A stretch of DNA of 63,694 bases, taken from the NCBI GenBank assembly GCA_041651055.1, contig JBAZJW010000005.1, positions 1-63,694 on the forward strand. The letters are read 5' to 3'. Made by a program: the position numbers and the translations under genes. How positions within the stretch are numbered: position 1 is the stretch's first letter; the number at the start of each line of letters is the position of its first letter. Positions 888 to 41,049 of this stretch are shown here, one piece after another. The notes under the pieces were generated by a model that searched no databases, was not told the DNA's origin, and saw only the letters and a list, made by a program, of their open reading frames with translations. The DNA comes from Minisyncoccota bacterium. Its GTDB lineage: Bacteria > Patescibacteriota > Minisyncoccia > Phycocordibacterales > UBA5272.

Positions 888-888
888 A

Positions 889-3290: not shown

Positions 3291-3463
3291 CGAATTACAA
3301 AGAATATAGTGATGCAAAAGAAGCAATATCTCATTGTATCTCTAATAAGGAACAGGAGATAGCAAAAATAGAAATCGAAATTATAGAATTAAAACATACT
3401 AGACGAATGCTTGATGAAGAATTTAAAAAGAAACTTAATGAAAAACCAAATTTTATTGGATGA
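3287..3463 (+). CDS. Hypothetical coiled-coil protein (58 aa)
   Basis: Hand-translated MTNYKEYSDAKEAISHCISNKEQEIAKIEIEIIELK.... ATGA overlap with the upstream stop. It is below the track size cutoff. Confidence 0.45.
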   Translation: MTNYKEYSDAKEAISHCISNKEQEIAKIEIEIIELKHTRRMLDEEFKKKLNEKPNFIG

Positions 3464-3467
3464 TAAA

Positions 3468-14201: not shown

Positions 14202-14240
14202 CCTCTGTTAGCTTAACAGAGGATTATTTTTCTTTATTTC
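14202..14240 (+). terminator. Hairpin plus T-rich tract after the helicase gene
   Basis: CCTCTGTTA-gct-TAACAGAGG (9-bp stem) is followed by ATTATTTTTCTTTATTTC. Confidence 0.6.
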
Positions 14241-14241
14241 T

Positions 14242-14296
14242 GCTATATAGTTAGGTTTAAATATATGTTTACTATTATAATTATAGGTGAATACAA
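14242..14296 (+). promoter_or_regulatory. Promoter of the regulator/glycosylation operon, with CTATATAG palindrome
   Basis: The order is TGCTATATAG, TTAGG, TTTAAATA, ..., CTATTATAAT, ..., GGTGA. Confidence 0.6.
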
Positions 14297-14434
14297 ATGC
14301 CAAATGTGAATCTAGACAGGACAATTAATATTTCGGTCAGCGTACGCATTGACCAGTACAAGTGGCTCAAAGCTAACAAGTTCAACCGCTCAAAGCTTTT
14401 TCAGGAGTTCGTGGACAAGCAAATGAAAAAATGA
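14297..14434 (+). CDS. Ribbon-helix-helix (CopG/Arc-like) DNA-binding protein (45 aa)
   Basis: Hand-translated MPNVNLDRTINISVSVRIDQYKWLKANKFNRSKLFQEFVDKQMKK, which has a beta-strand then two-helix pattern. Confidence 0.5.
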   Translation: MPNVNLDRTINISVSVRIDQYKWLKANKFNRSKLFQEFVDKQMKK

Positions 14435-14649
14435 ATCAGGTAAAACTCAGGGCTATATCCAGCAGGCACGGCAACGAATCTTTCGGTGTAACTATCCCTA
14501 TTGAGATTGCCAGCAAATACGAAGGCACTTACTTTCACGTCACAGAACGTGACGGGTGTATTCTTTTAGTTTCAGGATGTCATGCAGAGGTGAAGAGGGA
14601 TGCAAGAGAAAATAAAATTGGGGTGGATGTCAGATTCGCCAATGTTTAA
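14431..14649 (+). CDS. AbrB/SpoVT-type (swapped-hairpin) DNA-binding protein
   Basis: The GVTIPIEIASKY pattern. ATGA overlap with the upstream stop. Confidence 0.5.
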   Translation: MNQVKLRAISSRHGNESFGVTIPIEIASKYEGTYFHVTERDGCILLVSGCHAEVKRDARENKIGVDVRFANV

Positions 14650-15811
14650 CACGGGCTTCTCGAGTATTAGCCGTGACCTAATCAACAGGCTTAACAAGAA
14701 GCCTCAGTATGATTGCAAGTATCTAGGGCATAATTACCAAGGTCAGGCACTGACACGGGGTACAAAGTTCATTGACGGAAGTGAACTTGACTTCGAGCTT
14801 CACGGCGGTGGAATGAAACCCTTTGCTCAGGACGTCATGAGTTGGTGGATTAAACAGCAGAAGCTTGACGTGTTCGGCGTCCTGTTAGATACGTTCATGC
14901 TTTACGGCAGTGACGGGTGGTTTCTTAGACAGGATACTAGCCCTGCAAAGACTATAATGTATTTTCCAAGTGACGGTGAAGCCTGTCTTCCAATCAACTG
15001 CGAGAACATTCTTAGGAAGGTTGACATGCCAGTGGCCATGAGCAAGTTCGCCAAGAAGCAGGCATGGGACGTTTACAAAATAAAGACGGAGTACATTCCT
15101 CATGCTGTTGACCAAAAGCTTTTCTTTCCATTCACAACGGAAGAAAGAATTGCGCTTAAAGCAAAGTGGGGCTTGAAGAACAAGTTTGTTGTTGGCACTG
15201 TGGCCAGGAATCAGCCACGGAAAATGCTGGACAGAACTTTCAAGGCATTCAAGATATTCGCTGAAGGAAAGGATGACGTGGTTTTGTTCTTGCATTCCGA
15301 CCCGAATGATATTTCTGCAGTATTTGATTCTTATCAGTTGATGATGCGGTACAACATTCAGAATAAGGTGTTGTTTTCAGGAGTAAAATATTTTAGAGGT
15401 CTTCCATACAAGGAAATGAACAGCGTATACAACATCATGGACGTTCACTTCTTGTCAACATCTGGTGAGGGCTTCGGAGTTCCAACCATTGAAGCTGCTG
15501 CTTGTGGAATCCCGTCAGTAGTGACAGACATTACCACCACGCAAGAACTCTTGGTTGAAGACGGGGAATGCGGACTTCCAGTGAAGTGCCTTGGCGGAGA
15601 ACTTGATACGCTAACTGGAAGCTGGAATGTTGAGCGAGGAGTAATGGACATTCTGGACGCAGCTAAACAATTGCAAAAACTTTATGATGACGCCAAGCTT
15701 AGAGCCAAGCTCGGCGAGAACGGAGTGAAGAAAGTCGAGAAGTTCTATGACTGGGAAAAAGTTGCGGATGACTGGGACAGGCTAATCAGGGAGAAGGTGA
15801 TGGAACTGTGA
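14600..15811 (+). CDS. GT-B glycosyltransferase, family 4-like
   Basis: STSGEGFGVPTIEAAACGIPSVV is an E-x7-E type motif. SD GAGGTGAAGAGGG precedes the ATG. Confidence 0.75.
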   Translation: MQEKIKLGWMSDSPMFNTGFSSISRDLINRLNKKPQYDCKYLGHNYQGQALTRGTKFIDGSELDFELHGGGMKPFAQDVMSWWIKQQKLDVFGVLLDTFMLYGSDGWFLRQDTSPAKTIMYFPSDGEACLPINCENILRKVDMPVAMSKFAKKQAWDVYKIKTEYIPHAVDQKLFFPFTTEERIALKAKWGLKNKFVVGTVARNQPRKMLDRTFKAFKIFAEGKDDVVLFLHSDPNDISAVFDSYQLMMRYNIQNKVLFSGVKYFRGLPYKEMNSVYNIMDVHFLSTSGEGFGVPTIEAAACGIPSVVTDITTTQELLVEDGECGLPVKCLGGELDTLTGSWNVERGVMDILDAAKQLQKLYDDAKLRAKLGENGVKKVEKFYDWEKVADDWDRLIREKVMEL

Positions 15812-16527
15812 TTATTGCAGCAATGATTTTTCAGAACTCCGAAGACTACATTGAAATGGCTTTGAAGTCAGTCATGACGTGGGCTGACAAGATAGTTCTG
15901 GTGAATGGTGGCTGCACTGACAAGACTCTGGACATTATAACACACCTTAGAGATGAAAGGTTTGTAATGATTTTTAATCCTTGGGATTCTAAGGACAAAG
16001 GCATGGACGGCAAGCAGCGGAATGTGTACTTGAAATATCTTCTGGAAAATCATATTGGTGACTGGTGCTTAGTCATTGACAGTGACGAAGTGGCGAGTGA
16101 TAGCTGCGTGTACCTTAAAAAGAATCTTGAAGAAGTGGAAGCGCAAGGAATCAATGTCATCAGTCCTAAAATGGAGCATTTCATGTACGACTTGAAGCAC
16201 GTTGACGCTTCAATGGACAAGCACTGGTGTCTTCACAGGCTGTTCAAAGTACAGCCAGGGCTTCACTATCCAGAAGTTGAGCACAACGTTTTAGAAGTGC
16301 CCAACATTAAGCATGCGCATACCGAAGGTATAACACTGTATCACTTAGGATATATTAGAGGATTGTTTAGTGTCATGAACAGGTACAACAAGAATCTAAG
16401 CAAGAGCAACATTCATACGCCAGAATTTTTAGACAGGTGGAAGAATCATCACATTCTAGGAACGTACCCTACAAGATTTTATAATGGTGAGTACCCTAGA
16501 GCAATGAAAGAATACTTTGGCATTTGA
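15808..16527 (+). CDS. GT-A glycosyltransferase, family 2-like
   Basis: IIAAMIFQNSEDYIEMALKSV...LVIDSDEV has a DxD-type motif. Confidence 0.6.
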   Translation: MIIAAMIFQNSEDYIEMALKSVMTWADKIVLVNGGCTDKTLDIITHLRDERFVMIFNPWDSKDKGMDGKQRNVYLKYLLENHIGDWCLVIDSDEVASDSCVYLKKNLEEVEAQGINVISPKMEHFMYDLKHVDASMDKHWCLHRLFKVQPGLHYPEVEHNVLEVPNIKHAHTEGITLYHLGYIRGLFSVMNRYNKNLSKSNIHTPEFLDRWKNHHILGTYPTRFYNGEYPRAMKEYFGI

Positions 16528-17081
16528 CGATGGACTACAAACAATCAGACTACAATGATGCGTACTGGGAAGGCAGGGACAAGATAGAGCCTAAACATTA
16601 CGTCATCTGTTCGGACATTTACAAGTCATTCATTCCGAAGACACTTCTTGACTTCGGCTGCGGAGCAGGACAATTGGTAAAAATTTTTAATGATATGGAA
16701 GTTAATGCGTTCGGTTATGAGCCTTCAAAAATTGCGAACACATACAAACGCTCTGGAAAAATTGATTCGCAGTACGCATTCTTAGATTATGATTTGATAA
16801 CTTGCATGGACGTGGCTGAGCATATTCCAGTTGTAGATGTTGATGAGTTCTTGTCAGAAATAAAAAAGGCTTCTGTCAGGGAAGAATTTGTTGTAGTGTT
16901 CAGCATTTGTTTCAGGGGCGACCCAAACTTCAAGCACGACAGCACTCATATCACCGAACGCACTCGAGAGTGGTGGGAATACAAGCTCAGAAGCAATGGC
17001 TACGATATACTAAAGACTCCAACTTTCTGGGCGTTTAATAATCAAATGATGGTCACAAGAATAAAGAAAGAGGTGGGATAA
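16524..17081 (+). CDS. Class I SAM-dependent methyltransferase
   Basis: Motif I LLDFGCGAGQL. Confidence 0.7.
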   Translation: MTMDYKQSDYNDAYWEGRDKIEPKHYVICSDIYKSFIPKTLLDFGCGAGQLVKIFNDMEVNAFGYEPSKIANTYKRSGKIDSQYAFLDYDLITCMDVAEHIPVVDVDEFLSEIKKASVREEFVVVFSICFRGDPNFKHDSTHITERTREWWEYKLRSNGYDILKTPTFWAFNNQMMVTRIKKEVG

Positions 17082-17082
17082 G

Positions 17083-17943
17083 TTGACGCAAAGGATTAGT
17101 ATACATATTGCAACGAAGGACAGGCATTCAGAGATTGCCTGCTTGTTAGTGAGTCTTCGCAGTCAAACATTTCAGGACTGGGACTTAGTGATTGTTGACG
17201 AGAGTCAGACACCATTGAACACTCACGTGCCCACAATGCACTTGCTTAATAGGCTGCGCTTGGAAGGTCACAAGGTCAACTTGATGCGCAATACAATGCT
17301 GTTAGGCGTGTGCCATGCTAGGAATATCTGCATTGACAACGATACTTTCAAGAATAAGCTAACACTAAGAGTAGATGACGACGTCATTCTTGACACTGAC
17401 TACATAGAAAAACTTTACAATGTTCTTGCGTCAGATTATGACATTGCTTCTGGAGTGACTCCATTAGTATCGCAGCCAGAGTTCATTAGAGAACCCAAGC
17501 GTCTGAACGGAATTGTCAATAAGATTGAGTACGACAAGGAAGGAAACATTGTCAGGCTTGATGATGACTGCGGAATGTGCTACGACGGATATGTTAATCA
17601 ACCTGACGCAGATGGAGATTGTCTGCTACCTTTTGATATGGTTGTTTTGCCAGCAGACCACTTCCGTAGTTGCGCATTATACAAGACTGAAATCACTGAC
17701 AAGGGCATAAGATATGAGTCTAACTTGAGCCCAGTGGGTTTCAGGGAAGAAAGTTTTTTCAGCCTCAGAGCAAGATACTTGGGTTGCAATATTGGCGTTG
17801 ACCTGTCAGCAAAGGCTTGGCATTTCATGACTCCTTCTGGCGGTTGTCGTTATCCCAATTATCAAGAACTTGTGATGCAGGACAACGAGCTGTTTATGAA
17901 ATGGTCAAAGGCTATGTTCAAAGAAAAAGGTGAGCCGAAATGA
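17083..17943 (+). CDS. GT-A glycosyltransferase, family 2-like
   Basis: ISIHIATKDRHSEIACLLVSLRSQTFQDWDLVIVDES...RVDDD. It uses a TTG start. Confidence 0.65.
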   Translation: MTQRISIHIATKDRHSEIACLLVSLRSQTFQDWDLVIVDESQTPLNTHVPTMHLLNRLRLEGHKVNLMRNTMLLGVCHARNICIDNDTFKNKLTLRVDDDVILDTDYIEKLYNVLASDYDIASGVTPLVSQPEFIREPKRLNGIVNKIEYDKEGNIVRLDDDCGMCYDGYVNQPDADGDCLLPFDMVVLPADHFRSCALYKTEITDKGIRYESNLSPVGFREESFFSLRARYLGCNIGVDLSAKAWHFMTPSGGCRYPNYQELVMQDNELFMKWSKAMFKEKGEPK

Positions 17944-18356
17944 TTAGAGTCACAGTGAGTGGCGGTTTCGACCCATTGCATATTGGACACTTGAGGATGA
18001 TGCAAGAAGCCAAGACGCTCGGAGACTACTTGATTGTCATCGTAAACAATGACAACTGGCTGAATAAGAAAAAAGGTTACACGTTCATGCCAGAAAATGA
18101 ACGGGTTGAACTCATTGAAGGACTTGCCTGCGTTGACGAAGTAGTACTGTCCAAGCATAAGCCCAACCCTGACGACATGAGCGTATGTAATGAACTCCGT
18201 GACATCCAGCCAGACATTTTTGCGAATGGTGGTGACAGGTTTTCTGACAATACTCCAGAGAAGAATCTTTGTGACGAACTAGGTATTGATACAGTGTTCA
18301 ATGTTGGTGGCGGAAAAATAAGGAGCAGTAGCGAACTTGTCAACAAATGTAGGTGA
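17940..18356 (+). CDS. Cytidylyl/adenylyl-transferase of the HxGH family (TagD / RfaE domain II-like sugar or glycerol-phosphate activation)
   Basis: SGGFDPLHIGHLRMMQEAKTLGDYLIVIVNND...ERVELIEGLACVDEVV. Confidence 0.75.
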   Translation: MIRVTVSGGFDPLHIGHLRMMQEAKTLGDYLIVIVNNDNWLNKKKGYTFMPENERVELIEGLACVDEVVLSKHKPNPDDMSVCNELRDIQPDIFANGGDRFSDNTPEKNLCDELGIDTVFNVGGGKIRSSSELVNKCR

Positions 18357-18362
18357 TGAACA

Positions 18363-19457
18363 ATGAAGCTTAATGTTATGGGAAACGTTTTCAGTCAGAC
18401 AGGATTCTCGGTTCATACAAGATTCTTAGCCGAAGCACTGCAGGACTCGGGCTATGACGTTGCCATTGAAAGCCCGAAGCACCCGAACTGGGAAATGCTT
18501 TGCCCTGATAAAATGTTTAAGATGTTGAACAAGAACTATCAGCGTGAGCCAACAATAATGATTACATCACCAGATTATTATAGGCTCAAGTGGGCTGACA
18601 ATCCTGAGAAGCTTATTGGATTCTGCATTTGGGAAGGAGACACTGTGCCTAAGTCTTGGACTAGAAACTTGGAATTGTGCGACCAGATTTGGGTTCCGAG
18701 CGAGCATGTAAAAAATGCTATTATGCATTCACTAAGTTCTGAAGAAGTTGAGGAGCTCGCGATTGTGGAAAAAATGTTTGTTGTTCCTCATGGCGTAGAC
18801 CTCAAACAATTCTACCCGAAGAAAGTGGAACGGGATGACCGATTTACTTTCGTAGCTGTTAAGGGTTGGGCTGAAGGGCTTAACGACAGGGGTGGACTCC
18901 AGTACCTAATTAGAGCCTTTGTGGACGAGTTTCAAGAGGGTGAGGCTGTTAAGCTTATGGTCAAAGTGAACGCTGTATACGGCGGTTCAGAAGAGCTTGT
19001 AGGCTCTTGGCTTAAACAAGCTGGTATAGAGAAGCTTCCGAGTAACGTAGAGCTAGTATTTAAAGACATTCCGTACTCTGAGCTAATAGATACCTATAAC
19101 AAAGGGGACGTCTTTGTATGCTCCACTAGGGGTGAAGCTTTTAATCTCGTAGGATTAGAGGCTATGGCTTGTGGGCTTCCAACGCTGCAAACAGGCTTTG
19201 GCGGTCAACTGGATTATATGACTCCAGGCAATTCTTGGTACATTGATTGTAAGCTCGAAGAGGTCACTCATAACAAGCTTCTTGAGGGAATCAAGTGGGC
19301 TACACCTGACCATGAAGACCTAAGAGTCAAGCTTAGATACTGCTTCGAACATCAAGATGAAGTAAAACAAAAGGGAATTCAAGCTTTGAAAGATGTTCAA
19401 GAATGGTCATGGAATAATTCTGCAGTGAAAGCAAAGCAGGCTCTTGATAAATTATGA
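18363..19457 (+). CDS. GT-B glycosyltransferase, family 4-like
   Basis: STRGEAFNLVGLEAMACGLPTL. Confidence 0.7.
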   Translation: MKLNVMGNVFSQTGFSVHTRFLAEALQDSGYDVAIESPKHPNWEMLCPDKMFKMLNKNYQREPTIMITSPDYYRLKWADNPEKLIGFCIWEGDTVPKSWTRNLELCDQIWVPSEHVKNAIMHSLSSEEVEELAIVEKMFVVPHGVDLKQFYPKKVERDDRFTFVAVKGWAEGLNDRGGLQYLIRAFVDEFQEGEAVKLMVKVNAVYGGSEELVGSWLKQAGIEKLPSNVELVFKDIPYSELIDTYNKGDVFVCSTRGEAFNLVGLEAMACGLPTLQTGFGGQLDYMTPGNSWYIDCKLEEVTHNKLLEGIKWATPDHEDLRVKLRYCFEHQDEVKQKGIQALKDVQEWSWNNSAVKAKQALDKL

Positions 19458-19529
19458 GTCTCAGAGAATGGACTTTGGGGGTGGTTTTAAGAAAGTTGCC
19501 ACTCCCTGAGACAAAAATATAAAAAAAAA
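19458..19529. terminator. Bidirectional terminator at the convergence point of the two gene arms
   Basis: Imperfect long hairpin with outer stem GTCTCAG / CTGAGAC and inner stem GGGGTGG / CCACTCC. It is followed by an A9 run, which is T9 on the minus strand. Confidence 0.55.
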
Positions 19530-19739
19530 TTATTTGCCCTGAAAGAACTTCAAGGCTGCATTCAACAATGCACTTGCCAATGGTATGACTATGTAGGCAT
19601 ATGTTCCCCAATCAATCTGTGGCAAAAGGTCTAGAAGAAACACTGCAGCAGTACCGCCGCAGGCAATTCCCAAGCCCTTCAAAATCTTCTTGCCGTCTTC
19701 CTTGTTTAACTTATACTTCGGACTTTCTTTACTTACCAT
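19530..19739 (-). CDS. Holin-like small membrane protein (69 aa, two hydrophobic segments)
   Basis: GLGIACGGTAAVFLLDLL and YAYIVIPLASALLNAAL. It is the last gene of the late arm, next to the peptidase. Confidence 0.45.
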   Translation of the reverse strand: MVSKESPKYKLNKEDGKKILKGLGIACGGTAAVFLLDLLPQIDWGTYAYIVIPLASALLNAALKFFQGK

Positions 19740-19745
19740 TTTTGT

Positions 19746-20375
19746 TCACCTCACAAGTGTGGCATGTTGTGCCCAACTATGTTCCTGATTGAACGTCCAC
19801 CACAAGTCATAATATTTCTTTAGTTCGCTATGCGGGACATTCTTTAAATAGTTTTCTATACTTTCTACTGGGTAATAACACCAGTCCAAGCAGTACCAAC
19901 GGAAATCGTCTTTCAAATAAATGACGTAAGCGTGCCCAACTCTCTTATTGGTTCTTGGCTCTAGCACATAACCGCAGGCAACTTTCCTGCGCCAAGCAGG
20001 AATATCAGCAGCGTCCATTAGTGTCATGAGCATTAAAGCTCCGTCTTCACAGTCACCAGTGCCCAACGCAAAGGTTTCTGCAGGTGACTGCCAGCGTTCA
20101 GGTTTGTTCCATTTAAGCATATCACTCTTGTACGATACACGCTTCATAACAGCTCTGAGACATGTCAGTGCTGCTTCATCATGGCTTTTAGCCTCACCAC
20201 TTATAGTATTGCCAAGTTCTTGTATTTCCATACAAGTGTCAGTGAGTGTTGTACGTATGTCAACAAGTTCTCCGCCAGTAATTGTCATGTATTTTATATT
20301 AGACTTTGGCCACTTATTATTCCAATAATTTTCAAATACTGAAGGAAACGCTTTTATTAACGGCGAAAAATTCAT
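19746..20375 (-). CDS. Transglutaminase-like cysteine peptidase (candidate lysin; Pei-like fold class)
   Basis: GTGDCEDGALMLMTLMDAADIPAWRRKVACGYV...GHAYVIY...WYCLD gives a Cys-His-Asp core in the transglutaminase order. Confidence 0.6.
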   Translation of the reverse strand: MNFSPLIKAFPSVFENYWNNKWPKSNIKYMTITGGELVDIRTTLTDTCMEIQELGNTISGEAKSHDEAALTCLRAVMKRVSYKSDMLKWNKPERWQSPAETFALGTGDCEDGALMLMTLMDAADIPAWRRKVACGYVLEPRTNKRVGHAYVIYLKDDFRWYCLDWCYYPVESIENYLKNVPHSELKKYYDLWWTFNQEHSWAQHATLVR

Positions 20376-20386
20376 TATGATTCACC

Positions 20387-21913
20387 TCATTTATAACCTA
20401 GCCATGCACTCCATATTTTTGGTGTGGGATTGTCAGTATCACTCTGCAAGTTAAATCTTATTTTTATAGCTATTCCTTCCACTGTCGGAACTGTTAACGT
20501 ATTTAATCCAATACCTTGCCATGTGCTACCATTGTCAACGCTGAACTCAAACGTGCAAGAGTTATAATCTTGCCCATGTATCCTAAGTTCCACACCAGTT
20601 ATTACTGCATCACTATATTTTGTTATACTTGTTGCACTGCCAGATGATTGTCCAGTATCTAACATGAGTGTACTATTCAATTCTTGTGTATTAGTGTGCG
20701 TAAATTGTGACGAACTTTCTTCGAAGGTGTAACATATTGCATCTGTGATGGCATTAGGATTGTTGGAGGCTTGTATGTTGCCTGTTATCTTATCATCTCT
20801 TAATGAAATAATATCCCATAATTCAGTGCCATTACGTTCATAAGAAAGTGTAGTTACCCAATTGGCAGCACTAATATTGTGAGTGAACTCTTGCACTATA
20901 TGAAGTCCTGAAATGTCACACCTCGGGCATTCACAGTAAATGCTTTGTCCTGGACGAAGTGTTGGAAGTCCATGAAGTACTGTAAGTGTTCCTTTGGTAT
21001 CTGTTACGTTGGAACTTCCAAGCTTTAGACTAACATCAGTCTCAATTGCTTCCTGTGAATGAAGATTGTTATCATTGACTAATAGGTCTTTCTGCCAAAA
21101 ACTAGCTATATCTGTGCTATCTTTTTTACTTTTAGCATAATAAAAATTTCCAGCACTTTCAACCTTGTCGCCAGTCATTATGATATTATTACGACGTTCT
21201 AGAAGGTCTTCACCATAATTATTCACTGCCGCAAGGTTCTGTCCTATGACTACACTCTCAGCAGTATTTATTTCTTGAGTGAACGTATGTATATCGTAAT
21301 CAAAATCTAAGTAGCCATAGTACCCTGCTTTGTTCAATGCATCACTGAATATTTTTGCAGGTTTTGCCCAAGTGTAATCTCTATAAATTAATGTGGTCAT
21401 TCCAGTGCTCATGTTAGTAGTTGTAAGAATACTAGAGAACCAGTTAGTGACCATAGAAGATAATAACACATATACTGTCTGGCTCGTAACACTCTCAACA
21501 ATTAGCCTGTCTTGAACTTCTGGAGCTTCCCTGCCTTCAAGTACCATAAAATATCCGTTGTTAGCATCAAAGCTTTTGAAAGGTGCATCGATTTTTCCTC
21601 TGAATATTTGATTAGTTGCATCTGTAAAATCTGCATAAATGTCAATTCTTTCTCCGCCCGTAATGATAGAGTTCCACTTACCTTCTGTGTTATCAATGTC
21701 AACAGTGAAAGTTCCAAAGCCTCGATTAAGAGTTTTTCTTGTTACAGAAATATTAAGCACATGAGGACTTGTAGAGCTTGCGAGGTCGACTTGAGTTCCG
21801 CTATGAAGCGTAACTAATACTTTTAATTTGGGCGTATAAGTAGAACGTGGAGTAATTACAATAACTTCATCATCATGAAAACTTCCAGAATTAGGTCGTG
21901 ATAGTGTTGCCAT
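20387..21913 (-). CDS. Tail/baseplate structural protein (508 aa)
   Basis: Called from its position at the distal end of the tail module. No motif was quoted. Confidence 0.4.
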   Translation of the reverse strand: MATLSRPNSGSFHDDEVIVITPRSTYTPKLKVLVTLHSGTQVDLASSTSPHVLNISVTRKTLNRGFGTFTVDIDNTEGKWNSIITGGERIDIYADFTDATNQIFRGKIDAPFKSFDANNGYFMVLEGREAPEVQDRLIVESVTSQTVYVLLSSMVTNWFSSILTTTNMSTGMTTLIYRDYTWAKPAKIFSDALNKAGYYGYLDFDYDIHTFTQEINTAESVVIGQNLAAVNNYGEDLLERRNNIIMTGDKVESAGNFYYAKSKKDSTDIASFWQKDLLVNDNNLHSQEAIETDVSLKLGSSNVTDTKGTLTVLHGLPTLRPGQSIYCECPRCDISGLHIVQEFTHNISAANWVTTLSYERNGTELWDIISLRDDKITGNIQASNNPNAITDAICYTFEESSSQFTHTNTQELNSTLMLDTGQSSGSATSITKYSDAVITGVELRIHGQDYNSCTFEFSVDNGSTWQGIGLNTLTVPTVEGIAIKIRFNLQSDTDNPTPKIWSAWLGYK

Positions 21914-24900
21914 TAGTCAATCACCACACATCCACCATATCCATCACCTGAATCTGAGCAATAGCTAGTCCACCAATTCCACCAAGCATAATAAGGTCGT
22001 CCTGACACGTTATAAAAATCTGCAAGTATATACACTGGATATTCTGAAGAATTGGTGACATTCTGCATAAATGCCTGTCTGCTATAATTAAGTACCACTG
22101 TTGATGATGCAAGTTTTGTTGTCTGATTCATTATATACATTGTTGTAGAATTCGTCATGTTGGTGGTATTTATGTAACCATCTGTTGCATTGGTTTGTAA
22201 ATACAAATCAATATTATGGTCAAATGCTGAGCTTGAAACATTCTGAATACTTAAATTTTTAAATCTGCTCATAACTTGTCCGTGAGGACTTACATTTTTC
22301 TGGCTTGAACTCATAGGGTTAAATAACATGTAAGTAATTCCTGTAGGAACAAATTCTACACTGAACGGGGAATAATAAATCATCATGGTTTGTGATTCAG
22401 AATATTCATCATTATGCCCAGTGATAGTAATATTACCAGTGCCTCTATATTTAACTCGTAAATCTGAAAATTGTATAGTGGTATTAGAATTATTCACAGC
22501 AATAGATTTATTACAATCTTCTGTAGAACAGTTAGAAAGATTAAAACTTGAATAGTTTAAACTAACATCTGCTAGTGTCCCAGTTGCAGTTAAATTCCAA
22601 AAAGTGAGATAGCCTTTACTAGTTGATAAAATATCAAATATTATTGGAACATCACATGTTGTGGTTGTATTACAAGTTGATGATTGTAAATAATTATTGA
22701 AAATATCACTATCTAAGGTAACAACAGTGGGCGTTGTTGAATTGTTTAAATCTCCACTGACATTGAATTGGTATGATATATTAGTTCCTACTTTCACGCC
22801 CAAATCAGAAACAGAATCGCTTGATACCTGCAAATCAACATAGTACATTCCCACTGGAAGCTCTGTCTGCGTGTTGGTCATATTTATCTTGTAACGTAAG
22901 TATTTTCCTGGATTACTAAATGTTAAGAAACTTTCATCTGTAGCCTCTTGCCAGTTAGTACCATTATCAGCTGAAACATATAATCTTACATCAGAACCTG
23001 CAGGTTGTAACTCACTAAAGTCTGGATAAACATTTACTATATCCTCATCACTTGATAATATAATATCTGAAAATGCTTCTGCACTTGTCTGATTATCTAA
23101 CCAATGATTATCTGTCTGTGAATAATTAATTCCTGCTCCACTATAATTTATCTGATAGAAGTAAACATAACCAACACCAGTTCCTCCACCGAAACCACAA
23201 TCAGCTCCATAACCATCCGCATATCCAAATGAATATCCTTTAATGTTTGTACCACTTCCTGGATTTGCAACAGTTTTTAGAAATACTCCATCTTTGTAAA
23301 CATATAATTGTGTAATGTCACTAGCATTATATCTAAAACTTAATACTCCTGAAGATGTAGAACTTGAACTACCATAACAAGATAGTGATATTACCTCAGT
23401 GTTAGGAAGTGTGCCTGCTGCATTGGTGACCAAATTTATGGATGCTATACCTATACCACTTCCAAAATTTCCCCAACACCCGTTTGATTCATACCCGTAT
23501 GCACTACAACTCATATTGTAATAAATGTCTACTCGTGTTTTTGTATTAAAATCCAAGCCTTTAGAATTTAAATGCGCATACTGCTGTGCTGTGTCAATAT
23601 AGGAACCATCTGAGTATGCTGTTGCACTTGATAACGTATATATAGTCTCATTAGAATCCCACTCGGCAATACCTTCACCGCCTTCATTATAATTCCATCT
23701 TCCACTTACGTCAGAAGTCATATCATCAAACACAAACGTTGGAAGTGATGTTGAATAATATGAGCCGTTGTTAGTGTCATCAAAATAACTATCATTGTAC
23801 CAAAGTTCTAAATAGTCTAATTCTATTGGATTTGATGCAGTTGCATTAACCCAAAACGTAATGTTATCTTGCATACTAGCAGCACTGCTTAAACGTATAT
23901 ATGTTGTATAGGTACTAGTAGCTGTAAAATCAACGTCTGTTAATGTTGTTGTATTATCATACCACCTGTTTTCAACAAGTGTATTATTATTTAAGTATCC
24001 TCTAAAAGTTACTTGTGTATTATTGTCGTTATCACTGTCCAGTGTTGTATCAAGTGTTGTGTCATAAGCATATATATCAACTGTTACACCAGTAAGTTCA
24101 CTCCAGTTTTTTGTATTGAATTCAAATGTACCATTATCTGTAATATTTATTTCTGATACTCCAGTACTAAACTCCGTTGTTTCAACGTATGGAATTGTAA
24201 AATTGTAATATAAGGGCAACGTTCCGCAAGTGTAATTTATTCCATAATCTTTAAGACTAATGTCTATACAAAATGTTGATGCATAACCATCTGATGATAA
24301 ATTTATGATTGGAGTTGTGAACATCTCCCATTTCTTTGTTGTATTATAATCTTCAATTTTAAAAACTAATGTAAAAAGTCCCAATATTCTTTCAGCACTA
24401 TAATTAATATTTCCAGAGGTATCAGTACAATTAATGTACCAATAATATGTGCCAGTAGTCAATAATAATGTAAACGTAGCATTACCCGATGAAGTATTTG
24501 TAGTGTTACTATTATTATTTATGTACAATGTACAGTTTCCAAAACTGTATGCGTCACTAGCTGTATAATTGAATACCACTTCATAACTTGTATTCGCATA
24601 TGCGGTTTCATTGGCAGGACTGTTTATTACTAACGACGGAGGATTATTATCAATAATTATCGTCATGTTTTGACTATTAGCTGAATCAGTGCCATCACTA
24701 CAATTTATCCAGAATGCCCATTGCCCATCGTCAATAGTAGAGTTAGCAACTAATGTAGAATATACAGACACATCTACACTATCATTAAATCCGTAATTAG
24801 TTCCGTTAACAAAAATTGAGCAGTTTAGAATGTCACTGTCAATATCGTCAGCTTCAAAATCAACAGACAGTGTATTATTTGTTGTTGCTGTATTATTAGT

Positions 24901-27900
24901 CATATTTACAATTGTAACATTTGGAACACTATTACTTACTGTAATCTGTTCAGAATAATTATATGGTGACGAAAACAGTTCATCAATTGCCTGAACGGAA
25001 ACATTTATTTTGTCAGTTTTAGAAAAATATGAATTATCTAAACTAGAATTAAGTATTGTTCCTGCAACTGTATTATTAAACGATTCACTAAAAATATATG
25101 TATCGTTGATGTACCAAAAAAATGTTATATTGCCAAGTCTTGAATAATAATTATAGTATGACGTATTAGCACCCAAGTATGAATTTGTATATACTGTTGT
25201 CAAATTAAATTCTGGAGCTGACACCAATATAGGATTAGTTGGATAAACAGTTACAACTGACGAATTGAGCCAAGAACTATTTGCTGTAATATTACTGGCC
25301 AAACATGAGAATGTCCAATTAGTGTCTACTGCTTGACTTGAAATAGTATTTATTGCGTACTCTACACTTTCTTGGAATGGTAATTTACTTGTATAATTAA
25401 CTTCTGCAAATGTTACTCTGGTAGAACCTGAACCATCTGAGCCTCCATCGTCAGCTTGTTGTTCTGTCTGGATATAAATATCTCCTGATAATGTATCAGC
25501 ACATAATAATTCATCTGTATTATTATAGACATAAACTGTATCTGCTGTTGTGTTTATGACAATAAGTAAATCAATATAATCCACAAGATACTGTACAGAA
25601 CAACCTGGAGTGCCACTACATAATGCAATACCACCCATGGCGCAAATATTATCAGTACCATTACTTATCTGTGTATACGCATAGGAATTAGAATTTAATA
25701 CTGCGGCTGCAAGAACTGTCATATTTTTTATTGTAACGTTTATTGCGTCAGGAGCATTAGATAATGTAGTAAAACTTATAAGTTGTTTAACACCACCAAG
25801 AATAGTTGATGCACCATCACCACCAGGATTAACAACAGAAGAATTTAAAACATTCAATCCTTCTGACAATGTTGATGTGCCAACAGGAGCGTCACCCCAT
25901 AATGTTGTATTGACAACCGAATCATCAAAATTATCGTAAGTATAATTTCCTATTGACGTGTAATTAATACTTCCAGAACTATTTAATCCGTCATCATTAA
26001 ACCATTCATAATAGAACCAATCTATAATGTCACCGTCAACATCTGTCGCATTACAATATCCTGTTAATGAACTATTGGTATATGCTGGGTCAGGAAGTAT
26101 TCTTGACGTATTTACAACAGCTAAGGAATTCAGTATTCGTATTGCAGAACTATTAATAGCAGTCCCATTGTGTGTTCCATTCTGTGGTGTTATCTGTATT
26201 ATTACCATACTGTCTTTTCTCACATTGGTAAGAGTTGTTATGTTGGTTGAATTTGCAAGTCCCGAACTGTTGTATACATCATTGATAAACCATGTAAAAT
26301 ATGAATCTGTTTCTGCGTCCTCGTCAACATCAGTTATTGTATAGTTAGGAATCAATACTGTATCATAATACGCTGTTGTTGGAGTAATATTTACATTGGT
26401 GACAACTGGTAATGTATCAGTCATCTGAATACAGTATTCTTCGGATTCATTTGAGTGTCCAAAATTTGAATCGTTTGCCCAAAACTTCCAGCATACTTCA
26501 GGCTTATGGGTGATATTTAATATTGATGTAACACTCACATTGATAGAAGCTGCAGTATTATTGATTACTGAAGAACTATTTGTCATTATGCCAGATATAT
26601 TTGACGCAAAAATATAATAACTAATATTTCCAATCGTATCTGTTATGGTGATATTTGTTATTAAGCTACTATTATATTTGAATGTATCATTAGATGTATT
26701 TTTTGCATTTTCAAAATATGGAGCATTAGTATCTTTTGTTATAGAATAATTTAAACTTGTACCTGTAATACCATCATTAATACACGCAACCCAGAAATAA
26801 TAATAACCATCTGATAACGTAGTGTTACTAGATATATTTGTTGGTGTATTATTCAATACAGAATCGTTTGTATTATATATAGTTCCATTAATTAACAACG
26901 AACAATTCAACGTTGCATAAATATTATCTGTTGCATTTATATAAGCCCACTGTATATTCTCATTTGCAATAGTGTCATTTTCTGGTGAAATAATAGTTAC
27001 TTCAGGTATAGAACCCAATGTGATATTTAATAATCCGCTAGTTGAACTTTCTGTCTCGACATTAAGTGTTCCATCAATACAAGCTATGAATAATTTATCT
27101 GATGATGACACCAACGCATCACCTGCAGCTAATGTGCACACATGACTATTTGTTCCTGTTGTTGAACAATTTCTACTGGTGCCCATCGTTGTCCAGTTTT
27201 GGTCTTCTTTATTTATTCTGCAATAAGCATTTTGTATTGTATTAAATGTTACTGTTGGAGTAGTGTCAATAGTCAATATTGATGTTGCCTCATTACCATT
27301 TCTCCAAGCAGTACTATTTTGTCCACTACTTGCGCTTGTTAAATTATATGTTGAATTATCTATTGTTGGAAATAAATAATCAAAAGGATATGCAAATCCC
27401 GCACCACTATTATACATATTTGATATTTCTGTTGCATTTAATGTTCTATTCCATTGTGCGAACTCGTCTATCGTTCCCTGAAACCAGTCATTATTTCTTA
27501 TGCTCCAAATGGCTAAGTAGTTTAATGTAGGCCATGCTCTTATAATATTTGCATCAGTAAGAGTGCTTTGTAATACTCCATTCAAATATAATTTACATGT
27601 GCCAGCAGTTCCATCAATTATCACCAAAATATGATTCCAAGAATTATTACTCAATACGCTACCATAAGTAAAAAGACCACCGCCTGTATTTAAATTTACA
27701 GTTAAATTTTCAGTTGCAGTTCCTCTTGTCATTATAGCCCAGTCACCCGCAGCCCAAGCACCATTAGAAGATGAAGCCACTATTGCATTATATCCAGCAG
27801 TTGTCCAGCCACCTATGCCATGTTTGTTTACCCATACGCTAACAGTCGTATTCGTGGTTTGAGCATTTGCTGAGTGGTTAAACCTCTGGTCTATTGCTGT

Positions 27901-28095
27901 GAAATTATAAGCCTGATTAAAGAATCCTGTAACGTTGCTTGGTGTTCCGAGCTTCGTGTATGTTTTTCCTACGTCGGCAGTTAGAACTCCATTGGTAGCT
28001 GAGTAGTATTGTATTAGTCCATCTGTTAATGCTCCCATAACTGAACTCGACAACATAAAAACAACAATGAACCAAAATAAAATTTTAAATTTCAT
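21913..28095 (-). CDS. Giant (2060 aa) secreted LamG/concanavalin-like domain protein, extremely rich in N-x-S/T sequons (adhesin/fibre-like)
   Basis: N-terminal signal-like MKFKILFWFIVVFMLSSSVMGAL. LamG pattern ...TVSVWVNKHG...WNHILVIIDG...CKLYLNGV...FQGTIDEFAQWNRTLNATEISNMYN. Sequons occur throughout. Confidence 0.8.
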   Translation of the reverse strand: MKFKILFWFIVVFMLSSSVMGALTDGLIQYYSATNGVLTADVGKTYTKLGTPSNVTGFFNQAYNFTAIDQRFNHSANAQTTNTTVSVWVNKHGIGGWTTAGYNAIVASSSNGAWAAGDWAIMTRGTATENLTVNLNTGGGLFTYGSVLSNNSWNHILVIIDGTAGTCKLYLNGVLQSTLTDANIIRAWPTLNYLAIWSIRNNDWFQGTIDEFAQWNRTLNATEISNMYNSGAGFAYPFDYLFPTIDNSTYNLTSASSGQNSTAWRNGNEATSILTIDTTPTVTFNTIQNAYCRINKEDQNWTTMGTSRNCSTTGTNSHVCTLAAGDALVSSSDKLFIACIDGTLNVETESSTSGLLNITLGSIPEVTIISPENDTIANENIQWAYINATDNIYATLNCSLLINGTIYNTNDSVLNNTPTNISSNTTLSDGYYYFWVACINDGITGTSLNYSITKDTNAPYFENAKNTSNDTFKYNSSLITNITITDTIGNISYYIFASNISGIMTNSSSVINNTAASINVSVTSILNITHKPEVCWKFWANDSNFGHSNESEEYCIQMTDTLPVVTNVNITPTTAYYDTVLIPNYTITDVDEDAETDSYFTWFINDVYNSSGLANSTNITTLTNVRKDSMVIIQITPQNGTHNGTAINSSAIRILNSLAVVNTSRILPDPAYTNSSLTGYCNATDVDGDIIDWFYYEWFNDDGLNSSGSINYTSIGNYTYDNFDDSVVNTTLWGDAPVGTSTLSEGLNVLNSSVVNPGGDGASTILGGVKQLISFTTLSNAPDAINVTIKNMTVLAAAVLNSNSYAYTQISNGTDNICAMGGIALCSGTPGCSVQYLVDYIDLLIVINTTADTVYVYNNTDELLCADTLSGDIYIQTEQQADDGGSDGSGSTRVTFAEVNYTSKLPFQESVEYAINTISSQAVDTNWTFSCLASNITANSSWLNSSVVTVYPTNPILVSAPEFNLTTVYTNSYLGANTSYYNYYSRLGNITFFWYINDTYIFSESFNNTVAGTILNSSLDNSYFSKTDKINVSVQAIDELFSSPYNYSEQITVSNSVPNVTIVNMTNNTATTNNTLSVDFEADDIDSDILNCSIFVNGTNYGFNDSVDVSVYSTLVANSTIDDGQWAFWINCSDGTDSANSQNMTIIIDNNPPSLVINSPANETAYANTSYEVVFNYTASDAYSFGNCTLYINNNSNTTNTSSGNATFTLLLTTGTYYWYINCTDTSGNINYSAERILGLFTLVFKIEDYNTTKKWEMFTTPIINLSSDGYASTFCIDISLKDYGINYTCGTLPLYYNFTIPYVETTEFSTGVSEINITDNGTFEFNTKNWSELTGVTVDIYAYDTTLDTTLDSDNDNNTQVTFRGYLNNNTLVENRWYDNTTTLTDVDFTATSTYTTYIRLSSAASMQDNITFWVNATASNPIELDYLELWYNDSYFDDTNNGSYYSTSLPTFVFDDMTSDVSGRWNYNEGGEGIAEWDSNETIYTLSSATAYSDGSYIDTAQQYAHLNSKGLDFNTKTRVDIYYNMSCSAYGYESNGCWGNFGSGIGIASINLVTNAAGTLPNTEVISLSCYGSSSSTSSGVLSFRYNASDITQLYVYKDGVFLKTVANPGSGTNIKGYSFGYADGYGADCGFGGGTGVGYVYFYQINYSGAGINYSQTDNHWLDNQTSAEAFSDIILSSDEDIVNVYPDFSELQPAGSDVRLYVSADNGTNWQEATDESFLTFSNPGKYLRYKINMTNTQTELPVGMYYVDLQVSSDSVSDLGVKVGTNISYQFNVSGDLNNSTTPTVVTLDSDIFNNYLQSSTCNTTTTCDVPIIFDILSTSKGYLTFWNLTATGTLADVSLNYSSFNLSNCSTEDCNKSIAVNNSNTTIQFSDLRVKYRGTGNITITGHNDEYSESQTMMIYYSPFSVEFVPTGITYMLFNPMSSSQKNVSPHGQVMSRFKNLSIQNVSSSAFDHNIDLYLQTNATDGYINTTNMTNSTTMYIMNQTTKLASSTVVLNYSRQAFMQNVTNSSEYPVYILADFYNVSGRPYYAWWNWWTSYCSDSGDGYGGCVVID

Positions 28096-29111: not shown

Positions 29112-29479
29112 TCATATTGGTCTTGGATAATCGTCATATTGTAGCGAAGATTAGTTACTGTTGCAGCAGTTTTTGAATCATCAAAAAATGTTAAGTCTTC
29201 AACAATATAATTGCCATTACGTTCTGAATTACCGTCAGTATAAGCATGTTTAAGACCATCTCGTAATGCTCGTAAATCAGTGCGTGCTGAATCAATAGTT
29301 GTTGCGCTGCCAATTATTATTCCACTGATAACAAATCTAAAGTCCCAAGCGTCAGCAAACACCTCGTTCATCACAAGTCTTTTTCCAAGTAATTGTTTTC
29401 GAGTAGCAGGCACTGATGTTTCTAAAATATTTTCAGCATAGATAGTTACGCCGCCGAATGTTATTGTTGTATATGCCAT
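29108..29479 (-). CDS. Small tail protein following the tape measure (123 aa)
   Basis: Called from position. ATGA-type overlaps on both sides. Confidence 0.45.
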   Translation of the reverse strand: MAYTTITFGGVTIYAENILETSVPATRKQLLGKRLVMNEVFADAWDFRFVISGIIIGSATTIDSARTDLRALRDGLKHAYTDGNSERNGNYIVEDLTFFDDSKTAATVTNLRYNMTIIQDQYD

Positions 29480-35314: not shown

Positions 35315-35315
35315 C

Positions 35316-41044: not shown

Positions 41045-41049
41045 TTTGT

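Follow-up and report, generated by a model that had tools for sequence, protein, structure and literature searches.

The DNA analyzed here, positions 1 to 63,694 of contig JBAZJW010000005.1 (63,694 nucleotides, referred to throughout as the window), is the genome of a tailed double-stranded DNA virus that carries an operon for glycan synthesis. The operon encodes four glycosyltransferases (GT4a, GT2a, GT2b, and GT4b), an S-adenosylmethionine (SAM)-dependent methyltransferase (MT), and a nucleotidyltransferase (NT). It is near-certain that these enzymes constitute a soluble glycan-building module of the virus. A more specific reading, in which the soluble viral enzymes glycosylate proteins in the cytoplasm independently of any oligosaccharyltransferase (OST), with virion proteins as the most likely acceptors, is one that we regard as evenly poised between right and wrong. 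Direct protein glycosylation is favored because all of the enzymes are soluble, because GT2a has affinities with enzymes that prime glycans on polypeptides, and because GT4a has affinities with viral enzymes and with genes found in phage head modules.

An earlier note on this DNA had described six tightly overlapping open reading frames (ORFs). All six are present at exactly the positions it gave, all on the forward strand, and the successive junctions between them (GTGA, TTGA, a 1-nt gap, ATGA, and a 6-nt gap) bear out the compact arrangement. The operon is nevertheless bigger than that six-gene unit and comprises eight ORFs between positions 14297 and 19457, with a GGTGA Shine-Dalgarno-like element 8 nt 5' of the first ATG. 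Profile searches run as a check on the family assignments confirmed every family and found the catalytic motifs intact, with both GT4a and GT4b scoring above the PF00534 gathering cut-off of 26.4 bits. The features of the unit and its boundaries are as follows.

14202-14222, both strands: hairpin with a 9-bp stem followed by a T-run, directly 3' of the helicase gene; a terminator-like upstream boundary
14256-14263, + strand: TATA-box-like octamer TTTAAATA, in an AT-rich stretch, 34 nt 5' of the first ATG of the unit
14297-14434, + strand: 45-aa ORF whose stop overlaps the next start (ATGA)
14431-14649, + strand: 72-aa ORF that overlaps the start of GT4a and lies directly upstream of GT4a in relatives too
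14600-15811, + strand: GT4a, GT-B glycosyltransferase of the GT4 family (retaining type); PF00534, 58.5 bits; phrog_2170, E 5.6e-38; E290-x7-E298
15808-16527, + strand: GT2a, GT-A glycosyltransferase of 239 aa; PF13704, 32.8 bits (cut-off 27.5); PF00535, 29.8 bits (cut-off 23.3); D91-x-D93
16524-17081, + strand: MT, class I SAM-dependent methyltransferase; PF13489; GCGAG motif
17083-17943, + strand: GT2b, generic GT-A/GT2 enzyme of the glycan-elongating type; PF00535, 40.6 bits; DDD at 98-100
17940-18356, + strand: NT, HxGH nucleotidyltransferase (CTP_transf_like); PF01467, 62.9 bits; H14-I-G-H17
18363-19457, + strand: GT4b, GT-B/GT4 glycosyltransferase, a paralog of GT4a
(GT4b motif and score: PF00534, 37.9 bits; E258-x7-E266)
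19459-19480, + strand: weak hairpin and T-run immediately 3' of the GT4b stop codon

In searches of the Protein Data Bank (PDB), the sole GT-A structure matched by the GT2a family profile was the glycosyltransferase domain of GmaR (E 8e-15; 8e-8 with the single sequence), an enzyme that transfers GlcNAc to flagellin (PMC9638930). The sole NCBIfam match of GT2a was to the peptide S-glycosyltransferase SunS (TIGR04195). An AlphaFold model of GT2a (pLDDT 93.1) has the GT-A fold, and its top six PDB neighbors are SunS and ThuS structures (E 4e-13 to 6e-12; TM 0.64 to 0.69), with the next folds following at E values of 6e-9 or above and a TM of about 0.5. From profiles and model alike, GT2a appears to belong specifically to the GmaR/SunS/ThuS subgroup, whose characterized members all glycosylate polypeptide side chains in the cytoplasm, and by analogy with them it is proposed to be the protein-priming enzyme of the module. 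What is suggested here is that GT2a would work as the SunS and GmaR enzymes do, not that it is a member of their family.

GT2a and MT form a single fused protein of 404 to 474 aa in 19 of 24 related islands, with MT as the C-terminal domain. In the window the two are split collinearly at the linker with the LDFGCGAG motif intact; loci L099 and L100 share the split, and in L018, L027, and L028 genes are inserted between the halves. A frameshift error was considered as the cause and rejected, as two independent metagenomes share the split and other relatives have genes between the halves; because it recurs in relatives, the split is taken to be genuine. GT2b, which 19 of the 24 islands retain either just upstream of GT4b or near it, has an invariant DDD at 98-100 (alignment A4). 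Its profile matched only generic GT2 structures of the ordinary glycan-elongating kind in the PDB and is uninformative on the acceptor, and its matches to AglG (15.6 bits against a cut-off of 440) and PglI (15.4 bits against 500) are weak.

GT4a and GT4b are paralogs that align over their full length (hhalign of alignments A1 and A5, 99.6% probability, E 2e-24), an alignment that also assigns the GT-B fold to GT4b. By family type, transfer by both would be of the retaining kind from a nucleoside diphosphate (NDP)-sugar. Residues E290 and E298 of GT4a are invariant in alignment A1, which has a mean column identity of 62%, and the top PDB matches of the GT4a model (pLDDT 89.5) are all GT-B/GT4 enzymes. 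The nearest of these is B736L of chlorovirus NY-2A (PDB 3oy2), which matched GT4a over its full length by profile and was the top structural match (E 1.4e-20; TM 0.75 to 0.77), at an identity of only about 18 to 20%. B736L is the ortholog of PBCV-1 A546L, a soluble GT-B enzyme that binds GDP-mannose (PMC9614988). PglA is also among the structural neighbors of GT4a, there is a weak NCBIfam match to PglJ (18.2 bits against a cut-off of 500), and the DNA alpha-glucosyltransferases are distant (rank 38 to 40; TM about 0.5). The GT4b profile matched only generic GT4 structures in the PDB and is uninformative on the acceptor.

Homologs of GT4a occur in a few cultured phages at 24 to 28% identity over 77 to 99% of its length, and there they adjoin a GT2 gene and a SAM methyltransferase gene within head-gene modules. 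In the Pontimonas phage phiPsal1, an actinobacteriophage, the order is major capsid protein (MCP)-GT4-MT-GT2-neck, and in cyanophage S-CBS4 it is portal-x-GT4-GT-MT-HNH followed further on by protease-MCP; in Tetrasphaera phage TJE1 the GT4 gene is accompanied by genes for a nucleotidyltransferase, an epimerase, and a methyltransferase upstream of the terminase genes. The GT2 and MT proteins of S-CBS4 and phiPsal1 were tried as orthologs of GT2a and MT and rejected. Since hhalign comparisons were not significant and tblastn gave no matches, the GT4-GT2-MT triad is a family-level parallel only.

None of the six operon proteins has a transmembrane (TM) segment, and no polytopic protein (flippase, oligosaccharyltransferase, polymerase, or phosphoglycosyl or polyprenyl-phosphate priming transferase) was found in 25 islands or in the window. 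Because both TM segments and polytopic machinery are missing, the acceptor must be accessible from the cytoplasm. The earlier note had named as targets the virus's own secreted or virion proteins or the host envelope; the absence of membrane machinery together with the GmaR/SunS/ThuS-like character of GT2a favors proteins glycosylated directly in the cytoplasm, and the link that it drew to the secreted proteins is not needed.

The same note had proposed that the virus builds or edits a methylated glycan from a self-activated precursor of the ADP-heptose or CDP-glycerol type. A glycan-building unit with a methylation step stands, MT being fused to GT2a in most relatives, and virus-encoded activation is plausible; the heptose or glycerol assignment does not hold. 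NT falls below the equivalog cut-offs of both RfaE domain II/HldC (TIGR02199; 72.5 against 181.5 bits) and TagD (TIGR01518; 49.3 against 165.4 bits). None of the heptose-pathway partners GmhA, heptose kinase, GmhB, and GT9 heptosyltransferase was found in the window, and no glycerophosphotransferase of the TagF/TagB or Glyphos_transf type was found in the window or the islands. CDP-glycerol is unlikely as the product of NT because there is no TagF-type transferase to use it, and for the same reason a phosphodiester decoration of the Clostridioides difficile type is unsupported.

Over its full length, NT is best matched in the PDB by 3glv, a Thermoplasma protein of 143 aa. Stand-alone cellular proteins of Nanoarchaeota, Woesearchaeota, and Candidate Phyla Radiation (CPR) bacteria are 62 to 73% identical to it (67 to 70% for those of Nanoarchaeota and Woesearchaeota), against 32 to 51% for the NTs of other viral islands. 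NT looks recently acquired from a host because it is closer to these cellular proteins than to the other viral NTs, and an NT ortholog is present in only 4 of 28 related loci, at differing positions. In one Nanoarchaeota and one Paceibacterota genome the cellular homologs adjoin a stand-alone PF01050 mannose-6-phosphate isomerase cupin and GH130 enzymes, and the Nanoarchaeota locus also holds a HAD phosphatase. GH130 includes mannoside phosphorylases that release mannose-1-phosphate. On the strength of the neighborhoods of these 62-to-73%-identical homologs, NT is probably a sugar-1-phosphate nucleotidylyltransferase acting on a hexose-1-phosphate such as mannose-1-phosphate. The viral NT of L005 and L009 adjoins a GHMP sugar kinase and is likewise accompanied by a cupin; heptose-1-phosphate may be a substrate of NT, and L005 and L009 may have a heptose-type route. 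A 728-aa GT4 protein beside a cellular NT homolog in Nanoarchaeota was considered as the source of the viral GT4 enzymes and rejected, there being no similarity at E<1e-8. In another locus (L096 6001-12438, from the Nanoarchaeota metagenome-assembled genome GCA_042571825.1), an NT homolog (70% identical) comes first in a group of genes for an NDP-sugar dehydratase, a sugar-nucleotide dehydrogenase, a B12-radical SAM enzyme, and methyltransferases. The families are those of the viral cassettes described below, yet the proteins are just 29 to 33% identical, a hint that sugar-tailoring genes reach DPANN cells and these viruses from a common pool.

The module is widely distributed. At least 760 GT4a homologs were detected in metagenomic data at E<=1e-5, nearly all of the best 120 being 47 to 57% identical; seven closer relatives are 65 to 85% identical, and many of the homologs lie on contigs of 50 to 66 kb. 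In IMG/VR at least 594 contigs carry a GT4a relative, a result that required alignment A1, as a scan with the single GT4a sequence found nothing. The order GT4a ... GT2a-MT ... GT2b ... GT4b is fixed across the 24 related islands. Identities across relatives are 41 to 56% for GT4a, compared with 23 to 35% for the family B DNA polymerase (PolB), 28 to 34% for the PD-(D/E)XK nuclease, and 24 to 39% for the tail tube. The operon also matches the genome in composition (GC 0.435 against 0.425, with GC3 likewise matching) and is for that reason not a compositional island. The term "island" used in the earlier note, in the sense of an accessory import, is therefore not apt: with a genome-like composition, a GT4a more conserved than PolB, nuclease, and tail tube, and variable slots set in a constant frame, these sequence comparisons indicate that the glycosylation module is core to the lineage and not a recent import or sporadic cargo.

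Two positions within this scaffold, one after GT4a and one after MT, are hypervariable. The families found in these slots, counted as related islands out of 24, are as follows.

B12-binding radical SAM enzymes: 15/24 loci
small SAM methyltransferases: 13/24 loci
extra GT2 enzymes: 13/24 loci
NDP-sugar epimerases/dehydratases: 11/24 loci
second radical SAM family (SPASM radical SAM enzymes are among the slot genes): 9/24 loci
split E1-like thiamine pyrophosphate (TPP) enzyme pair with a cupin: 4/24 loci
UDP-Glc/GDP-Man dehydrogenase: 3/24 loci
further slot genes: GHMP kinase, YerE-like TPP enzyme, and HNH-type endonucleases (the last by eye)

The window has the minimal form of the module, with NT as its only extra gene, and this layout is shared by the closest relatives, which come from two independent metagenomes and whose GT4a is 76% identical. 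HNH-like ORFs, recognized by eye from a CxxC...HH...CxxC pattern, lie in or beside the slots of L003 (4791-5477), L014, L017, L025, and others (clusters C21 and C23), and cyanophage S-CBS4 has an annotated HNH endonuclease after its GT4-GT-MT triad. HNH endonucleases are possible drivers of cassette exchange.

The two small ORFs at the head of the operon are translationally coupled to GT4a. Both are kept in relatives, with a 53-aa ORF occupying the position of the 45-aa ORF in L099 and L100. An alignment of relatives of the 72-aa protein (A3) shows invariant Thr21 and Ser48, a frequent SGC motif, and a "GVTIPxxIA" motif. Neither ORF gave a meaningful match in Pfam at E<=1, and the A3 profile had no significant match in the PDB. 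By eye the 45-aa ORF looks like a ribbon-helix-helix protein and the 72-aa ORF like an AbrB-like DNA binder, resemblances that the profiles do not support. A search against Rfam found no RNA element in the operon, the sole match in the window being a tRNA.

The module always abuts distal-tail genes, which are convergent and downstream in the window and in L002, L014, and L018 and which lie upstream on the same strand in L020, L022, L024, L027, and L028. In the window these convergent genes, for tail and lysis proteins, start from 19530. The tail module ends, on the side that faces the operon, with a 69-aa ORF with two TM segments followed by a transglutaminase-like cysteine peptidase (PF01841) that is kept in L002, L014, and L018; the pair (19530-20375, - strand) may be a holin and lysin.

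The viral identity asserted in the earlier note is upheld by a full set of hallmark genes, including those for the large terminase subunit (TerL), portal, MCP, tail tube, and PolB.

45680-46987: TerL
43539-45620: portal-MuF fusion
40181-41053: HK97-type MCP
33362-33781: Neck1
31821-32804: tail tube
29479-31188: tape measure
20387-21913: YQBQ-like baseplate protein
3411-5267: PolB
59400-60284: RFC-like clamp loader

The terminal 126 nt (63569-63694) are identical to positions 9-134, an assembly overlap because of which the genome is probably complete, at about 63.57 kb, and circular or terminally redundant. The virus has no cultured relatives. The top TerL matches, at about 31% identity, are to Halogranum virus HGTV-1 and Thermus phages, and a DNA-level search of the operon against cultured phages gave no match. 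No description of this virus lineage or of its glycosylation module was found in the literature searched.

Indirect signals indicate that the host is an archaeon, probably of the DPANN group. Orthologs of GT4a are found on genome-sized contigs (61 and 63 kb) binned with Pacearchaeota or Nanoarchaeota, and further GT4a-bearing contigs are binned with Woesearchaeota and Heimdallarchaeaceae. One relative encodes PCNA, and the RFC-like clamp loader of the window is also counted as an archaeal signal, as is the 67 to 70% identity of NT to proteins of Nanoarchaeota and Woesearchaeota. The motif TTTAWATA is 3-fold enriched across the window (16 observed versus 5.5 expected; 0 of 100 shuffles reached 16) and recurs at a distance of 32 to 63 nt before the start codon that opens a gene block, for example at 9094, 12605, 14256, 57335, and 61254 on the + strand. 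This pattern is consistent with archaeal TATA-box promoters. A scan for sigma-70 promoters gave 14 sites against 9.8 expected, as by chance, with no + strand site upstream of the operon. Relatives whose GT4a is 54 to 56% identical differ widely in their replication and DNA-modification genes: L005 (3268-7527) carries a bacterial-type Pol III alpha, ThyX, and a dCMP deaminase, and L002 (131-1355) carries PolB, GTP cyclohydrolase I, MazG, and five N6/N4 methyltransferases. Such differences suggest modular mosaicism, possibly with hosts from more than one domain.

The genome also encodes exported proteins rich in N-x-S/T sequons, as the earlier note had observed, and shuffled sequences show that the enrichment exceeds what amino acid composition would give, except for 35316-35909 (z=1.8). 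The 2,060-aa product of 21913-28095 has 136 sequons against 53.4 expected from shuffles (z=14.1), and z is 3.9 for 28092-29111, 3.5 for 35906-36628, and 4.5 for 36616-37722. All of these proteins have a Sec-type signal peptide or an N-terminal TM segment, and z is about 0 for cytoplasmic proteins. The bacterial PglB-type sequon was considered and rejected, as D/E at -2 is not enriched; sequon enrichment in exported proteins without D/E at -2 is counted among the archaeal-host signals. A connection between the glycosylation module and these proteins is possible and, as said, not needed.

The largest of them, a Sec-signal ConA/LamG protein (Laminin_G_3), lies together with a 339-aa N-terminally anchored protein between the genes for the tape measure and baseplate (21913-29111, - strand), the usual Dit/Tal position. 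This region has a GC content of 0.31 to 0.33 and a GC3 of 0.22, against 0.425 GC for the genome, and L022, L024, and L028 have equivalents of such exported, sequon-saturated tail-module proteins. Between the neck and head genes are four consecutive small or medium ORFs (35000-37722, - strand) with a Sec-type signal or TM N terminus, two of them enriched in sequons (z 3.5 and 4.5); none of the four has a Pfam family, and the three scanned against PHROG (35316-35909, 35906-36628, and 36616-37722) have no family there. Why a tailed virus should have heavily sequon-laden proteins with Sec signals in the Dit/Tal place, and again between its neck and head genes, is unexplained.

Several other genes of the window are of note. 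Beside the MCP gene, 39024-40064 (- strand) encodes a 346-aa Cys-rich protein with right-handed beta-helix-like repeats by eye, zero sequons, and no Pfam family; it may be a fibre or decoration protein of the head, and it is a candidate glycan acceptor or binder. A 170-aa ORF between the tail tube and tape measure genes (31289-31801, - strand), in the position of a tail chaperone, ends in the S/T run SCSSTSTGTTSST. Upstream of the terminase gene (47500-51753, - strand), a radical SAM/SPASM protein (49795-50787) and SAM methyltransferases (47500-48159 and 51157-51753) flank the only tRNA (tRNA-Met, 48398-48480); these enzymes could modify protein, DNA, or sugar. Finally, a thymidine-hypermodification-type cluster at 336-3105 (+ strand) encodes P-loop nucleotide kinase 3 (PF18751), a GATase_6-like protein, an amino acid:DNA transferase (ADDT; PF18724, with a weak aGPT-Pplase3 match), and a GNAT acetyltransferase. 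A distance of 11 kb separates this cluster from the glycosylation operon, and the two are distinct units.

The analysis shows directly which genes the operon holds, their folds and motifs, the structure, conservation, and modularity of the unit, and that membrane components are absent. For direct cytoplasmic glycosylation of viral proteins we infer an enzyme order, a donor sugar, an acceptor, and a host that together would give the following scheme. The operon would be transcribed from its own TATA-like promoter. The host-derived NT would convert a host sugar-1-phosphate, most likely mannose-1-phosphate, and a nucleoside triphosphate to an NDP-sugar, topping up the donor supply in a metabolically poor host. 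In the cytoplasm, GT2a would place the first sugar directly on a Ser, Thr, or Cys side chain of a viral protein; GT2b together with GT4a and GT4b, the paralogous pair of B736L-like enzymes, would elongate it to a short oligosaccharide, and MT would methylate one sugar of the glycan. The outcome would be a virus-specified glycan coat on the virus's own structural proteins, whose composition would differ between relatives because the two slots carry interchangeable sugar-tailoring cassettes.

A number of observations weigh against this scheme. The likeness of GT2a to SunS and GmaR is at the level of subfamily and fold (about 19% identity), GT2a is without the TPR or peptide-binding domains of those enzymes, and it scores 22.7 bits against the SunS equivalog (TIGR04195) cut-off of 350. 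B736L and A546L have no known acceptor or function (PMC9614988). The partners of GT4 in the phage triads are not specifically related to GT2a and MT, and GT4a is only 24 to 28% identical to the phage GT4 enzymes. Apart from the short C-terminal S/T run of 31289-31801, the virion proteins have no obvious glycosylation tail; in particular, no convincing S/T-rich C-terminal tail like those of glycosylated mycobacteriophage proteins was seen on the MCP or tail tube. The sequon-rich secreted proteins near the module in the window and in L022, L024, and L028 (z 4.2 to 8.3 in these three relatives) fit an N-glycan route at least equally well. The host call rests on metagenomic binning, which is not proof of host, and on indirect signals; L005 has a bacterial-type Pol III alpha, and the CPR bacterial homologs of NT are as close as the archaeal ones.

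The N-glycan route just mentioned would have the soluble viral glycosyltransferases and MT remodel a host dolichol-phosphate-linked oligosaccharide on the cytoplasmic side of the membrane, in the manner of archaeal Agl enzymes, after which the host flippase and AglB would load the N-x-S/T sites of the secreted viral proteins (21913-29111 and 35316-37722) and possibly the host S-layer. Of the alternatives this is the foremost, and we think it unlikely, if worth serious consideration. The strong sequon enrichment (z up to 14) is restricted to signal-peptide proteins, similar proteins lie beside the module in relatives and in L022 directly abut GT4a, and a mix of GT2, GT4, SAM methyltransferase, nucleotidyltransferase, and NDP-sugar enzymes matches that of archaeal agl clusters. 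An archaeal host is likely, and a metabolically reduced DPANN host would give the virus a reason to bring sugar-donor genes. GT2b has its matches to AglG and PglI, and GT4a has its match to PglJ and PglA among its structural neighbors, but the Agl/Pgl matches are far under the family cut-offs (E 1e-3 to 1e-2), and GT2a groups with polypeptide-glycosylating enzymes and not with the GT2 enzymes of lipid-linked sugars. The priming transferase, flippase, OST, and TM-anchored glycosyltransferases are missing from the 25 islands and the window, although the host could supply them, and the sequon-rich proteins may simply reflect an archaeal host, with no need of viral glycan genes. GT4a homologs are moreover found in phages whose hosts have no known OST pathway; to our knowledge, no general OST N-glycosylation pathway is known in cyanobacteria or actinobacteria like those hosts. 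A reading that overlaps with this one comes from a groundwater virome survey, in which CPR and DPANN viruses commonly encoded glycosyltransferases and ConA/LamG proteins that were interpreted as modifying the host surface (PMC11310336). Applied here, the module would serve as an auxiliary function that, with the secreted ConA/LamG giant protein, alters the glycans or adhesins of the infected DPANN cell so as to affect attachment to partner cells or block superinfection, leaving virions undecorated. Agreement with that survey, the Laminin_G_3 domain and signal peptide of the 2,060-aa protein, and the nearly host-like NT all speak for such a role, which we nonetheless hold to be improbable: the module is a highly conserved core with a fixed place beside the tail genes instead of sporadic cargo, GT2a is of the protein-glycosylating type, and export and membrane components are absent from the 25 islands and the window. 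Neither integrase nor lysogeny genes came to notice in the ORFs that were examined, and what a lytic virus would gain from surface conversion is less obvious.

A glycocin-like function, with the 72-aa protein (14431-14649) or another small ORF as the substrate of a SunS-like GT2a and the other enzymes elaborating the product, seems very improbable. By structure GT2a lies nearest to SunS and ThuS, the S-glycosyltransferases of glycocins; GT4a in every case has a translationally coupled small ORF upstream of it; and the variable slots contain radical SAM/SPASM and B12-radical SAM enzymes, families often seen in clusters for peptide maturation. Those radical SAM families also occur, however, in a cellular NDP-sugar cluster, and the variable genes are overwhelmingly NDP-sugar tailoring enzymes. 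Leader peptide, protease, and exporter are absent, the 72-aa protein looks by eye like a DNA-binding regulator, and four glycosyltransferases far exceed any glycocin system known to us. Glycosylation of DNA, which the earlier note had left open through the base-modification cluster, strikes us as scarcely credible. In that case the glycosyltransferases would add sugars to hypermodified bases made by the 336-3105 cluster and so shield the genome from host nucleases. The cluster is present, with its PF18751, PF18724, GATase-like, and GNAT proteins, the operon is on the same strand as the replication genes and directly downstream of them, and GT-B enzymes glucosylate DNA in T-even phages. The operon is nevertheless 11 kb away with a promoter and terminator of its own, none of 91 related loci yielded an ADDT homolog (0/91), and relatives pair the same scaffold with other DNA-modification genes (GTP cyclohydrolase I, MazG, and many N6/N4 methyltransferases in L002; dCMP deaminase and ThyX in L005). 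The DNA alpha-glucosyltransferases are distant from GT4a, as the structural ranking given above shows, and GT2a is SunS/GmaR-like; we know of no DNA glycan that would call for four glycosyltransferases and branched or methylated sugar tailoring.

Virus-encoded autonomous glycosylation, as proposed here for the virion proteins, is an already known kind of system. That viruses glycosylate their own proteins with enzymes that they encode is established in giant viruses of algae and amoebae and, more recently, in mycobacteriophages. The mycobacteriophages Che8, Corndog, and Myrna have glycosylated virions (Freeman 2023, PMC10527164, as cited in PMC12363180). As that account describes them, soluble glycosyltransferases of a tailed virus act on capsid and tail-tube proteins in the cytoplasm without a host OST, and their genes are linked to structural genes (PMC12363180). 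In the actinobacteriophage phiPsal1, a GT4a homolog, a GT2, and a methyltransferase come directly behind the MCP gene. In contrast, the module described here lies between the replication and tail modules, joins four glycosyltransferases to a methyltransferase in an unvarying scaffold whose sugar-tailoring slots can be swapped, and has a SunS/GmaR-like candidate priming enzyme and a probably archaeal host. Chloroviruses likewise build their capsid glycan with virus-encoded soluble cytoplasmic glycosyltransferases (PBCV-1 A064R, A061L, and A546L; NY-2A B736L), and PBCV-1 A064R, a fusion of two glycosyltransferases and a methyltransferase, adds and then methylates a terminal rhamnose (PMC9614988). 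B736L/A546L is the nearest solved structure to GT4a by both profile and fold, and A064R resembles the GT2a-MT fusion of the relatives in joining glycosyltransferase and methyltransferase domains, a parallel of architecture only and not from sequence comparison. Those viruses are giant and their host is eukaryotic, and GT4a and B736L are only about 18 to 20% identical.

Cellular systems offer further partial likenesses. GmaR, the flagellin O-GlcNAc transferase of Listeria, and SunS/ThuS act in the cytoplasm on a polypeptide side chain and have a GT-A DxD domain similar to that of GT2a, by sequence for GmaR and by structure for SunS/ThuS. GT2a differs from them in having no TPR or peptide-recognition domain, in scoring far below the SunS equivalog cut-off, and in carrying or, in the window, neighboring a methyltransferase and being set among three further glycosyltransferases. 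Archaeal Agl and bacterial Pgl clusters share the enzyme mix, and the viral genome has sequon-rich secreted proteins, but there is no AglB/PglB, flippase, dolichol- or undecaprenol-phosphate priming transferase, or TM-anchored glycosyltransferase in the window or the 25 islands, and the AglG, PglI, and PglJ matches are marginal. The type A flagellin locus of C. difficile (cd0240-cd0244) performs glycosylation with post-glycosylation modification (PMC10714395). There too a protein-priming glycosyltransferase cooperates with a methyltransferase and an enzyme of the cytidylyltransferase type, and a structural filament protein receives a small decorated glycan, but that system requires a TagF-like phosphotransferase for its CDP-activated group (PMC10714395), and none was found here. 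O-antigen, capsule, and S-layer clusters resemble the viral module in that conserved scaffold genes enclose hypervariable NDP-sugar tailoring genes; the module here is viral and all soluble, with no Wzx, Wzy, Wzz, or ABC exporter.

What is new is the setting in an abundant, uncultured, and probably DPANN-infecting lineage of tailed viruses, the scaffold of four glycosyltransferases and a methyltransferase with two swappable slots, and a SunS/GmaR-like candidate priming enzyme that is fused to a methyltransferase in most relatives. No report of virus-encoded glycosylation of own proteins in archaeal tailed viruses was found in the literature searched. We put forward only tentatively, and with some doubt, that this is the first case of autonomous, OST-independent protein glycosylation in such viruses: SunS/GmaR-like priming of virion proteins, or of secreted tail-module proteins before export, on a fixed four-glycosyltransferase/methyltransferase scaffold whose two recombination-prone cassette slots, with their HNH endonucleases, would give rise to different "virion serotypes" within a DPANN-infecting lineage that is abundant and uncultured, an O-antigen-like diversity for particles.

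As a gene set the module is a hallmark of viruses of about 55 to 66 kb that form a widespread and uncultured lineage, and the apparent hosts, DPANN archaea, have almost no characterized viruses. The survey literature files such genes as auxiliary metabolic genes for cell surface modification (PMC11310336); the conserved architecture argues for a more specific, virus-centered role. If the proposal is correct, GT2a-MT would add a subfamily of protein-priming glycosyltransferases related to the glycocin and flagellin enzymes, and the cassettes would be a source of enzymes for rare methylated or branched sugars. A cassette-variable glycan coat would, in turn, provide a concrete mechanism by which these viruses diversify in host range and in evasion of defense.

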